From an archaeon (GTDB lineage Archaea > Nanobdellota > Nanobdellia > Pacearchaeales > GW2011-AR1): a stretch of 64,000 nt of DNA. Below are positions 55,075 to 56,296 of this stretch, piece by piece. The stretch covers positions 14,840 through 78,839 of the forward strand of contig JABHWZ010000003.1 of assembly GCA_018657525.1 (NCBI GenBank), given 5' to 3'. The position numbers were made by a program, and so were the translations under genes. Below the pieces are notes generated by a model, which did not search any database, was not told the origin of the DNA, and saw only the letters and a list, made by a program, of their open reading frames with translations. How positions within the stretch are numbered: the first letter of the stretch is position 1; every line of letters begins with the position of its first letter.

Positions 55075-55140
55075 TTTTCACCTTATAAATAAATAGGAAA
55101 ATGATTATATAAATGTATTTTAGAAAACGCCCTCGCCGAA

Positions 55141-55281
55141 AAAGTTCCCAACCCTGATTTTTAATTTTATAATTTACTTTCAGGATTTAATTAAAATCAA
55201 AGTTGCTCATCGAACTTATAAAAAGCTTTCTGAATTTACTCCAAAACTCTACGAGTTTAACAGCATTTAACAATGCTGGTT
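55141..55281 (-). repeat. 141-nt insert with the same TTCCCAACCCTGATTTTT...AAAATCAAAGTTGCTC module, bracketed by 14-nt tRNA-Glu 3'-end copies
   Basis: acgccctcgccgaa at 55127-55140 and 55282-55295. Confidence 0.85.
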
Positions 55282-55924
55282 ACGCCCTCGCCGAAGTGCG
55301 ACGGAGATTCGAAATAAATGATCGAATAGTTATTTGATTTCTAGATAATTTCAAAATTGTCTTTAACCTACTTTCTTTAAAATAATTACTTCTGTCATGG
55401 AGCGTTAAGATCCCATTTTGTTTTTTTAATATAATAAAATCTTCTTCATAATCTCCAGAAACTCCTGAAATCAGCAGGTATCCCTTTTCTTTTATACTAT
55501 TTTTTAAATGATTAAAAGATTCTTTCCAAGAATATTTCCTGTTTTCAAGATTGTAGTAGAGATTATTCATGCAAAATATCGCATCAAAATCATCTTGAAA
55601 ATTATGTCTATATCCATCTCCTTCAAGGAAAATCCCTTTTTTTCCAGAAGAAATAGCATAATCAATTGCTTCTTTATTGATATCAATTCCAATGACTTTT
55701 GAAGTAGAGTAGAACACAGATAAATCATGTGTGGTGAATCCCCTTGAACATCCCATATCTAAAATTAAACCATTATCTATTTTTGGAAGTTTTTCTTTAA
55801 AAACCATTTCTATTCTCCTGTGATGGCTGAGAGTATTTGTGTGGTAAGTAGGATATTTTTTACTTAAGATGTCTTCTTCCCTAAAAATTTTCCTTTGCCA
55901 TTCCTTTTCAGATGTATTTTTCAT
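55280..55924 (-). CDS. class I SAM-dependent methyltransferase; its last 5 codons and stop run into a tRNA-Glu 3'-end repeat
   Basis: ILDMGCSRGFTT motif I and VIGIDIN motif II. The tail ..TSARA* is read from TTCGGCGAGGGCGTAA. Confidence 0.7.
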   Translation of the reverse strand: MKNTSEKEWQRKIFREEDILSKKYPTYHTNTLSHHRRIEMVFKEKLPKIDNGLILDMGCSRGFTTHDLSVFYSTSKVIGIDINKEAIDYAISSGKKGIFLEGDGYRHNFQDDFDAIFCMNNLYYNLENRKYSWKESFNHLKNSIKEKGYLLISGVSGDYEEDFIILKKQNGILTLHDRSNYFKESRLKTILKLSRNQITIRSFISNLRRTSARA

Positions 55925-56030
55925 AATAAATCACAAAATTATTAGCTTATAAATCTAACTAAAAATCAGGTGATTGTTTATTTTAAAATTAATTTGGATG
56001 AATAGATTATTCAATAACCTACGCTCCAAC

Positions 56031-56106
56031 ACGCACTCGCCGAGATCCTGTCCTCAGGTTCTCGTGCCCCTCCGAAGGGTATCGAACTTCTCTGTTCGAA
56101 TTTCAA
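56031..56106 (-). repeat. 60-nt insert plus a displaced copy of the tRNA-Glu 3' end
   Basis: acgcactcgccgaga (56031-56045) versus acgccctcgccgaga (56106-56120). The insert carries a TCGAAC/GTTCGA hairpin and GATACCCTTCGGAGGGGCACGAGAACCTGAGGACAGGAT. Confidence 0.85.
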
Positions 56107-56296
56107 CGCCCTCGCCGAGATTCGAACTCGGGTCACCGCCGAACTCCATAAGAAAAGGTTGCATTGAGATGCTAGACCTTAATCTCTCATCGAGAAAAGA
56201 TCCCTTCTCTTTAGGTCAATCTGAATCAATCAATATAATTTATACAAACCAACTTATTTGAGAGGGCGGCATACTTGGCCTCTGTACTACGAGGGC
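56107..56296 (-). tRNA. tRNA-Glu (anticodon CUC) with a 117-nt intron at 37/38
   Basis: GCCCTCG/CGAGGGC acceptor, GTAC/GTAT D stem, CCGCC/GGCGG anticodon stem, CCGAG-TTCGAAT-CTCGG T arm. Loop CTCTCA|intron|C. Confidence 0.8.
56142..56258 (-). other. tRNA-Glu intron with a canonical hBHBh' splice motif
   Basis: Anticodon stem, 3-nt bulge UUC, 4-bp helix CUCU/GGAG, 3-nt bulge CAA, outer helix AUAAG/CUUAU. Confidence 0.75.

Follow-up and report, generated by a model that had tools for sequence, protein, structure and literature searches.

We analyzed a 64,000-nt stretch of DNA from an archaeon of the Pacearchaeales (GenBank assembly GCA_018657525.1, contig JABHWZ010000003.1, positions 14,840 to 78,839), which is called the window throughout. 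The subject of the analysis is a tRNA-Glu(CUC) gene and three displaced copies of its 3' end, which lie between this gene and the acetate kinase gene (ack) and bound three short units. Coordinates refer to the window unless a contig label is given; L003, L004, L023, L025, L032 and L033 are metagenome contigs of relatives. A metagenome contig in ENA (ERZ4200990 NODE_371) matches the window with 100% identity. The host genome is AT-rich (32% GC), and GC-rich islands in it mark RNA genes and other special sequences. The nearest relatives of the acetate kinase encoded in the window are at most 66% identical to it and are labelled Nanoarchaeota or Pacearchaeota.

The tRNA-Glu(CUC) gene occupies positions 56106..56297 of the minus strand. 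It consists of exon 1 (56259-56297), a 117-nt bulge-helix-bulge (BHB) intron (56142-56258) and exon 2 (56106-56141). Because of this intron, the gene was missed by default ARAGORN and by Rfam. When introns were allowed, ARAGORN placed tRNA-Glu(CUC) at c[56106,56297] with a 117-nt intron, and the sequence spliced in silico folded as a normal tRNA-Glu. A BHB scan found textbook intron borders (h1=7 bp, h2=5 bp). The 3' half of the intron (56142-56258, minus strand) is strongly conserved in the intron of the distant contig L025 (TCTCGATGAGAG...GGTCTAGCATCTCAATGCAACC), and TCGATGAGA was found in L023 too. Judged by this comparison, the conserved half suggests an intron-borne functional RNA.

On the plus strand, the sequence ACGCCCTCGCCGAR occurs exactly at 55127, 55282 and 56106, and with one mismatch at 56031. 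The copy at 56106 represents the last 14-16 nt of the tRNA-Glu gene. All copies are direct, and the spacings between them are 61, 735 and 141 nt. The four copies and the three segments had been described in an earlier reading made from the letters alone (below, the sequence-only reading), and both were confirmed by pattern scan. Chance similarity of the 14-mers was ruled out, as four matches were observed vs 0.03 expected and none of 100 shuffles reached four.

The displaced ends lie on the minus strand. Copy 2 (ATCTCGGCGAGtGCGT, one mismatch) is located at 56031..56046. Copy 3 (55282..55313) is a longer 3' portion, composed of a T-loop remnant (TTCGAATCTC), ~11 extra nt and CGGCGAGGGCGT. The remnant that had been reported in front of the 55282 copy is present (GAGATTCGAA, 55304-55313), though ~11 extra nt intervene. 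Copy 4 (55127..55140) is the distal-most one and abuts the ack upstream region.

Unit 1 (56031-56105, 75 nt) is the one proximal to the tRNA gene. Its spacer (56082..56105, minus strand) contains an inverted T-loop copy (AATTCGAAC) followed by a direct T-loop half (AGTTCGA), and the two form a hairpin according to both reading of the sequence and alifold. This inverted-then-direct pattern suggests that fold-back or template switching may have taken place at the TTCGAA palindrome. The spacer is followed by a 35-nt element, E1 (56047..56081, plus strand), with the structure CCTG-N4-CAGG / TTCTCGTG / CCCC-loop-GGG / TA. E1 adjoins TCGA and splits the second tRNA-Glu 3' portion within the T-loop. 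Unit 3 (55141-55281) holds an imperfect hairpin, E2 (GAGCAACTTTGATTTT-loop-AAAAATCAGGGTTGGGAA; 55145..55208, minus strand), which has a paralog at 43695-43761. The proximal and the distal unit had been called empty; this description did not hold, since the former is a conserved module with E1 and the latter holds E2.

Unit 2 (55296-56030) carries an open reading frame (ORF) of 214 aa (55280..55924, minus strand). As had been proposed, it encodes a class I S-adenosylmethionine (SAM)-dependent methyltransferase (Pfam Methyltransf_25/31/11 above cut-offs, E 1e-10), and its last 11 codons (...ISNLRRTSARA*) with the stop are read from the tRNA remnant. The only close homolog in an index of 5.8 billion proteins was the protein itself. 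An exhaustive HMMER scan gave ~470 remote homologs; the best one had 47% identity, and homology covered only approximately aa 26-195. Therefore the C-terminal tail lies outside the family. The gene is lineage-specific and lies between tRNA ends, and its role as cargo of a mobile element is unproven. Among ~50 collection blocks with the methyltransferase (55280-55924) or ack (54040-55074), ~14-15 hold it only on contigs of 2-5 kb. Breaks in assemblies of the host species thus appear to be frequent around this locus, and the repeated tRNA ends may be the cause.

Related modules at tRNA-Gln and tRNA-Lys

A similar layout was found downstream of the neighbouring tRNA-Gln(CUG) gene (56507..56579, minus strand). 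The tRNA-Gln module (56436..56506, minus strand) consists of a spacer with a T-loop half (56485-56506), a 32-nt E1 (56453-56484) and a displaced Gln 3' end (56436-56452). This second 3'-end copy is perfect and lies 56 nt downstream of the gene. Approximately 100 nt further there is a degenerate third copy (56337-56351, TAGCCCCTCTTGGAT), which ends a second unit (56337..56435, minus strand). The 60-nt Glu segment is homologous to the segment after tRNA-Gln, with 83% identity and the invariant core GGCAC[A/G]AGAACCTGAGGACAGGATC.

The third case is a displaced 3' portion of tRNA-Lys(CUU) (12396..12470, minus strand), composed of CTAAATCCCT, E1 (12420-12451) and TCGAGGCCA with 15 nt of flank. Here the orientation of E1 relative to the tRNA is opposite. 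The displaced portion is a 24-nt perfect direct repeat of 12598-12621; the repeat runs 15 nt into the flank, and 176 nt of unrelated sequence separates the copies. On the tRNA strand the three layouts are AGTTCGA|E1|ATCTCGGCGAGtGCGT for Glu, AGGTTCGA|E1|ATCCTGGAGGGGCTA for Gln and CTAAATCCCT|E1|TCGAGGCCA plus 15 nt for Lys. Each module thus repeats the 3' portion of its tRNA (T-loop through discriminator), with an E1 of 32-35 nt splitting it. The window contains exactly three tRNA genes (ARAGORN, introns allowed), and an E1-split displaced end was found at all of them. There were no further tRNA genes in ~14 kb beyond the window (~78 kb surveyed in total).

All three tRNA genes (Lys CUU, 12612-12688; Glu CUC, 56106-56297; Gln CUG, 56507-56579) are C34 isoacceptors of two-codon NNR sets. 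The codons of such isoacceptors can often be covered by U34 tRNAs, which might make insertions near C34 tRNA genes more tolerable.

Relatives with E1 were found by a pattern scan of JGI metagenomes, which gave two real ones, L004 and L003. In L004 a different tRNA-Gln(CUG) gene is followed by three perfect tandem units of 67 nt. Each of them contains a spacer, a T-loop half, E1 and the 3' end of its own tRNA-Gln, which differs from that of the window at the acceptor stem. This triplication requires slippage. Synteny between L004 and the window is partial, and the protein identity is 74% for RFC-S and 52% for RFC-L (the replication factor C subunits). A gene for the tRNA-splicing endonuclease EndA with both domains (L004 2508-3026, minus strand) adjoins the tRNA-Gln gene with the triple E1 array.

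Several other explanations of the modules were tried and rejected. They are not split or permuted tRNA halves, because the tRNAs are complete without them. Some D-arm-like similarity was seen, as would be expected of a degenerate full-length pseudo-tRNA, but E1 also occurs in the tRNA-Lys portion (inverted) and in pheT (see below). Readings as C/D-box, H/ACA or K-turn RNA, made by eye, failed as the boxes were absent and the G·A geometry did not fit; guide-type complementarity was seen for Glu and Gln, not for Lys. A casposon-like mini-element with a 14-17-bp duplication was dropped, since the 52-60-nt unit has no terminal inverted repeats.

E1 as a discrete insertion

Read in its own direction, E1 consists of CCTG-N4-CAGG, TTCTYGTG, another short hairpin and T(T)A, and TCGA always follows. 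The length of the copies ranges from 32 to 35 bp. We found three copies in the window (one inverted), three in L004 and one in L003; related cores are present at the RFC-S gene and in both copies of another element, E3 (see below). Of the 123 TCGA sites of the window only 6 lie in non-functional tRNA-derived sequence, and all three E1 copies were found at sites of this kind.

The copy in L003 shows how exact the insertion is. This contig is syntenic with the pheT region of the window, with PheRS-beta identity of only 43%, and it has a 33-nt E1 inside the pheT coding sequence, in frame. In 11 homologs of the protein (72-83% identity) the site reads EDVE-DSNYI, while L003 alone has EDVD-TLSGHENLRTG-DSNYI. 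The DNA of L003 pheT contains exactly 33 bp extra, and their removal (GATGTCGA|GGATTCGAAT...) restores colinearity with the E1-free contigs L033 (GATGTTGAGGATTCGAAT...) and L032. The pheT copy lies immediately 3' of TCGA, and on the opposite strand the target, ATTCGAATCC|TCGAC, is T-loop-like. No target-site duplication was found at pheT or at the tRNA-derived sites. E1 has no terminal inverted repeats, and two internal hairpins are present instead. By these comparisons E1 is a precise, discrete insertion.

Searches for E1 elsewhere were mostly negative. It gave no Rfam match at gathering or permissive thresholds. It was absent from IMG/VR, where 14 loose matches lacked the hairpins. A scan of 185,579 species-representative genomes found no E1; the first pattern was too strict and gave no match, and the second gave only two bacterial matches, which were read as chance from host and sequence context. 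In the literature the sequence appeared only as incidental oligonucleotides.

Known kinds of insertion fit E1 poorly. It is not a BHB intron, as no such motif was found at any E1 border in the scan that recovered the true tRNA-Glu intron. Like some non-canonical archaeal BHB introns, it is a conserved short insert in the T-loop (58/59) or between T stem and acceptor stem, and the lineage encodes EndA; unlike them, it lies in non-functional second copies, in either orientation, and also in a protein gene. An element of the IS200/IS605 type would likewise insert 3' of a fixed tetranucleotide without duplication, but the distances between hairpin and cleavage site do not fit and no TnpA was seen, so that a weak analogy is left. 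E1 and E3 resemble Rickettsia palindromic elements and REP/MITE repeats (repetitive extragenic palindromes and miniature inverted-repeat elements; PMC10969869), as they are short hairpin insertions in frame in essential genes and in both orientations. However, the Rickettsia elements are ~150 bp long, while E1 has 32-35 bp and neither terminal inverted repeats nor target-site duplication; it sits exactly beside TCGA in T-loop-like sequence, is found in three archaeal lineages only, and no candidate transposase for it was seen in the ~78 kb surveyed.

The E1 hairpin insertion is the novel part of this locus. The insertion is precise and free of duplication, and E1 is far better conserved than its hosts, which implies an undescribed insertion mechanism aimed at T-loop-like DNA. 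We tentatively propose that E1, together with the related cores in E3 and at the RFC-S gene, may represent a new class of site-specific insertion elements in DPANN archaea, ultra-small at 32-35 bp. Such an element would recognise T-loop-like DNA, insert beside TCGA without duplication, spread across lineages that are 43-74% identical in their proteins, and be tolerated in frame in essential genes. If this is true, the constant association of E1 with displaced tRNA 3' ends would mean either that E1 belongs to the machinery that creates these ends, or that the tRNA-tail modules are kept as protective decoys for single-copy tRNA genes.

E2, E3 and the duplicated ends of protein genes

The arms of E2 recur perfectly (18 nt and 16 nt) at 43695-43712 and 43746-43761. 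In both places E2 is an imperfect hairpin of 64-70 nt, located ~70-130 nt downstream of an ORF, and its G-U pairs form on the minus strand only. The second copy lies at the 3' end of a gene for a DUF87/HerA-like ATPase (43667..43826, minus strand), between two copies of a duplicated 26-nt target. In these copies 14 nt are identical, and the other 12 contain 4 differences, each of them a synonymous change at a third codon position. At present the gene ends in ...GEAPTAVKMKKRL*, and the original end (...GEAPTAVKINGDQAALRDIISRLNPKVNFF*) is displaced 134 nt downstream, where it is still an open frame of 30 codons. The insertion is 134 nt long, holds E2 and replaced the C-terminus. This pattern has been described for archaeal elements that use the 3'-distal part of a protein gene as their target and bring a stop codon of their own (PMC6563490).

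The 3' end of the gene for the RFC small subunit is duplicated as well (50862..50946, minus strand). The two 27-nt copies encode VLAGLGKE* and ILAGLGKE*, and their 7 differences are all synonymous save the change of V to I. The interval between them contains an E1-type core (TTCTCGTG-CCCTTTAGGG-TATC) and a 9-mer in inverted orientation. In relatives the gene ends with the same peptide, and no duplication is present. The copy is 26% diverged and still codes for the peptide, thus it evolved as coding sequence; therefore its source was recombination with homologous but diverged DNA and not duplication in situ.

Another GC-rich element, E3, is 110 nt long and has two copies with 84% identity, at 42613-42722 (plus strand) and 26625-26734 (minus strand). 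It shares with E1 the core CTCGTG-hairpin-TATC. One copy is in frame in a Trm5-like methyltransferase gene, where ~43 residues stand in place of 2 in the Trm5b structure 5YAC; its GC content is 53-57% vs 20-40% for the rest of the gene. The other copy lies just upstream of the ORF 26068-26691. E3 was rejected as a BHB intron because no consistent motif was present. From these sequences, the host genome appears to tolerate several kinds of small GC-rich insertions within genes.

Origin of the array

The ack-pduL-nth-RFC block is conserved in relatives. In two of them, L023 (7468-7630) and L025 (318-479), the tRNA-Glu(CUC) gene adjoins ack (ARAGORN, introns allowed); therefore the linkage is old. 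Both are distant, with ack 62-63% identical to that of the window. The number of displaced tRNA-Glu copies is 0 in L023, where the next gene follows after 46 nt, 1 in L025 and 3 in the window. The displaced copy in L025 (GTTCGAAGAGAAGCAGGGGCGT) lies 96 nt downstream, has 17 of 22 matches and carries the acceptor sequence of its own lineage. The methyltransferase, E1 and E2 are absent at the tRNA-Glu site in both contigs. Comparison of the neighbourhood across relatives, which the sequence-only reading had named as a check, thus did not refute insertion: refutation would have required an invariant, syntenic methyltransferase region without the 14-mers, whereas the two relatives lack the gene at this site and have 0 or 1 displaced copies.

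We consider it probable (approximately 60%) that the 3' end of tRNA-Glu and its three displaced copies reflect three or more distinct events of insertion or recombination, all at the T-loop/3' end of the gene. Each event would have left an intact 3' end on the tRNA body and shifted the earlier one downstream. Unit 3 (141 nt) would be the oldest and would retain the E2 hairpin. Unit 2 (735 nt) would retain the lineage-specific methyltransferase gene, with its frame now ending in a tRNA remnant. Unit 1 (75 nt) would be a second tRNA 3' portion, with E1 (35 bp) inserted in its T-loop beside TCGA. We infer this order of events, as well as the arrival of E1 after the duplication. The displaced ends may have been made by a site-specific recombinase acting in trans.

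Serial insertion is consistent with the architecture described above: repeats of the target 3' end bound the units, an intact gene lies at one end, and the E2 family occurs at a second target with its own duplication. Since the same signature was found at all three tRNA genes of the window and at two protein-gene 3' ends, it points to a genome-wide process in this lineage. The sequence-only reading had proposed accretion of att-flanked cassettes at a tRNA gene, somewhat like an integron. The first part holds in its main lines, as displaced tRNA ends bound three unrelated segments, and the integron likeness had to be given up.

Accretion of this kind is known from other systems. Archaeal att sites are short (8-26 bp, median 17), and archaeal elements integrate in the 3' ends of genes with a new stop codon and form arrays by re-use of the site (PMC6563490). 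Partial tRNA genes are recognised footprints of integration (PMC9897764). Integrated elements of Thaumarchaeota and other archaea use tRNA genes and 3'-distal parts of protein genes as targets, which matches the ATPase and RFC-S loci; they are kilobases long and encode integrases or casposases, whereas only remnants are seen here.

A close parallel is offered by the tandem ssrA islands of Dehalococcoides, for which insertion in the T-loop, repeats of 20 bp, an ORF that terminates within the repeat and accretion of cis-mobilizable elements (CIMEs) have been described (PMC3146451; PMC5704250). In both cases the units lie downstream of one small-RNA gene and are bounded by repeats of its 3' end (20 bp there, 12-17 bp here). 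Further, both share the insertion point in the T-loop, a conserved short element-side motif beside the repeat, an ORF that reaches its stop in the repeat (dsiB there, the methyltransferase here) and units without integrase that are read as decayed, possibly fixed elements. The ssrA islands differ in that they are 10-30 kb long and many have a serine-recombinase module, whereas the present units measure 75, 735 and 141 nt, and no recombinase was seen in or around them. Moreover, the window comes from a DPANN archaeon, and the proximal unit carries the secondary insertion E1. The array is thus a miniature, decayed variant of the known accretion at tRNA and ssrA genes, with E1 as the new item. 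It is unusual in two respects: the units measure only 75-735 nt and lack a recombinase, and within 64 kb such displaced ends were found at two protein genes as well as at every tRNA gene examined.

Several observations weigh against serial insertion. No known integrative element is nearly as small as units of 75-141 nt, and decayed elements would hardly be expected to be so alike in size as the Glu, Gln and L004 modules are. The tRNA-Gln module without its tRNA-derived tail equals the tRNA in its conservation between the window and L004 (82% vs 84%, flanks 44-61%), which would not be expected of a neutral scar. No integrase, transposase, casposase or other recombinase domain was found in ~45 window genes, in a survey that was not exhaustive. 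The methyltransferase gene has a host-like GC content (30%; ack 27%), and around its nearest homolog there are ordinary archaeal chromosomal genes and no tRNA, which left its proposed role as cassette cargo without proof. No presence/absence polymorphism was observed, as gene order was identical in all 24 same-species contigs read; nothing indicates present-day mobility, and each of the units is fixed within the population. No viral contig in IMG/VR carries the tRNA-Glu end, and an origin from a virus or plasmid was rejected because neither this end nor E1 is found there. Finally, tRNA-Glu is divergent from ack in L023 and L025 and co-oriented with it in the window. This indicates that one lineage underwent an inversion with a breakpoint near the tRNA, so that the history of the site includes rearrangement, not only insertion.

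The conservation of the modules could mean that they are selected functional RNA or DNA elements, either co-transcribed with the tRNA and acting in 3' processing or folding control, or serving as decoy attachment sites that shield the single-copy tRNA gene from integrases. The tRNA-Glu array would then be, in part, a device of this kind. The tail-less Gln module is better conserved than the L004 host proteins (82%; RFC-S 74%, RFC-L 52%), the tail tracks the acceptor stem of each host (A in the window, T in L004), and L004 keeps three perfect units. The modules have ~50% GC in a genome of 32%, and a copy was found at all three tRNA genes in ~78 kb. The Glu module folds better than its shuffles (z = -3.1), but the Gln module does not (z = -1.05). 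Consensus folding gave three hairpins, with CGAGA of E1 paired with UCUCG of the tail. This pairing has one compensatory-type change in the Gln copy, but it is the only covarying pair among only three distinct module sequences, and it is broken by L004. The tRNA-Lys layout differs as well, being 176 nt away with E1 inverted, and E1 also occurs within the coding sequence of pheT. Moreover, the module has no Rfam match even at permissive thresholds and is absent from L023, L025 and the 185,579 species-representative genomes. We therefore regard a selected function as unlikely. The conservation of the Gln module may reflect selection or concerted evolution with the neighbouring gene, or the module may have formed repeatedly out of one T-arm sequence and a conserved mobile E1; this conservation raises the question whether displaced tRNA ends can be functional.

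The repeats could also have arisen by local duplication, through slippage or through fold-back and template switching at the T-arm TTCGAA, with no foreign DNA; unrelated sequence, including the methyltransferase gene, would then have been inserted later. Template switching typically leaves a direct-inverted-direct pattern, which the T-loop copies show after both tRNA-Glu and tRNA-Gln, and the three identical units of L004 must stem from tandem amplification. The inverted 9-mer at the RFC-S gene, the lack of a recombinase among the genes surveyed and other simple tandem duplications in the window point in the same direction. However, the duplicated ends of the ATPase and RFC-S genes are diverged alleles, and local duplication would need long-term coding selection on the displaced copy. 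It also leaves aside that the three Glu units are unrelated in content, that E2 occurs at two unrelated targets, and that the tRNA-Lys repeat includes 15 nt of flank, its copies being separated by 176 unrelated nt. As an account of the whole array it seems to us quite improbable.

An integron-like platform, in which ORFs with a hairpin site (E2 as an analogue of attC) are captured serially at a fixed site, is effectively refuted: archaeal integrons have been reported (PMC9668308) and share the serial capture of small gene-bearing units at one site and a hairpin after the ORF, at ~70-130 nt in both E2 copies, whose arms begin ...CAAC and end GTTG..., loosely like the R''/R' cores of attC, but no IntI-type or other integrase and no attI or attC-type array was seen among the genes examined, the units are heterogeneous and bounded by the tRNA end and not by the hairpin, the E2 arms (GAGCAAC/GTTGGGA) fit only AAC/GTT of RYYYAAC/GTTRRRY, and the only two E2 copies are dispersed, the one at 43.7 kb lying inside a disrupted gene end and not after a cassette ORF.

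In the tiny genomes of DPANN archaea the tRNA genes are single-copy, and the mobile DNA of these archaea is little known. The locus suggests that such genomes, too, gather insertion scars, worn to tens of nucleotides, at every examined tRNA gene and at the 3' ends of essential genes. The intron-containing tRNA gene escapes standard finders, and such scars can be mistaken for tRNA fragments or cassettes.

Other repeats were also observed in the window. A recurring hairpin with the loop GGAGGCAATT(T)AA is present in GC-rich leaders at ~60540-60600 (minus strand), in both E3 copies and at ~580-641 of L025 (minus strand). In the window it lies upstream of pheT, and in L025 between tRNA-Glu and ack; possibly it is an RNA motif, regulatory or structural, that the clade has conserved. 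Direct repeats of 97 nt with 77% identity (33466-33562 and 34643-34739, plus strand) flank the FEN1 (XPG) gene directly and carry a hairpin motif, CTCGC...TTTCCCAACCGCGAG, that is related to the C-rich one beside E2. An intergenic tandem duplication of ~185 nt (58135-58505, plus strand; 84% identity) contains the hairpin ACAAATCTC-TGG-CGAGATTTGT and the motif AATTCCCGACCCTCCCCC. There are also two short tandem arrays on the plus strand, with three units of 77 nt at 26777-26966 and three units of 62 nt at 14415-14600.

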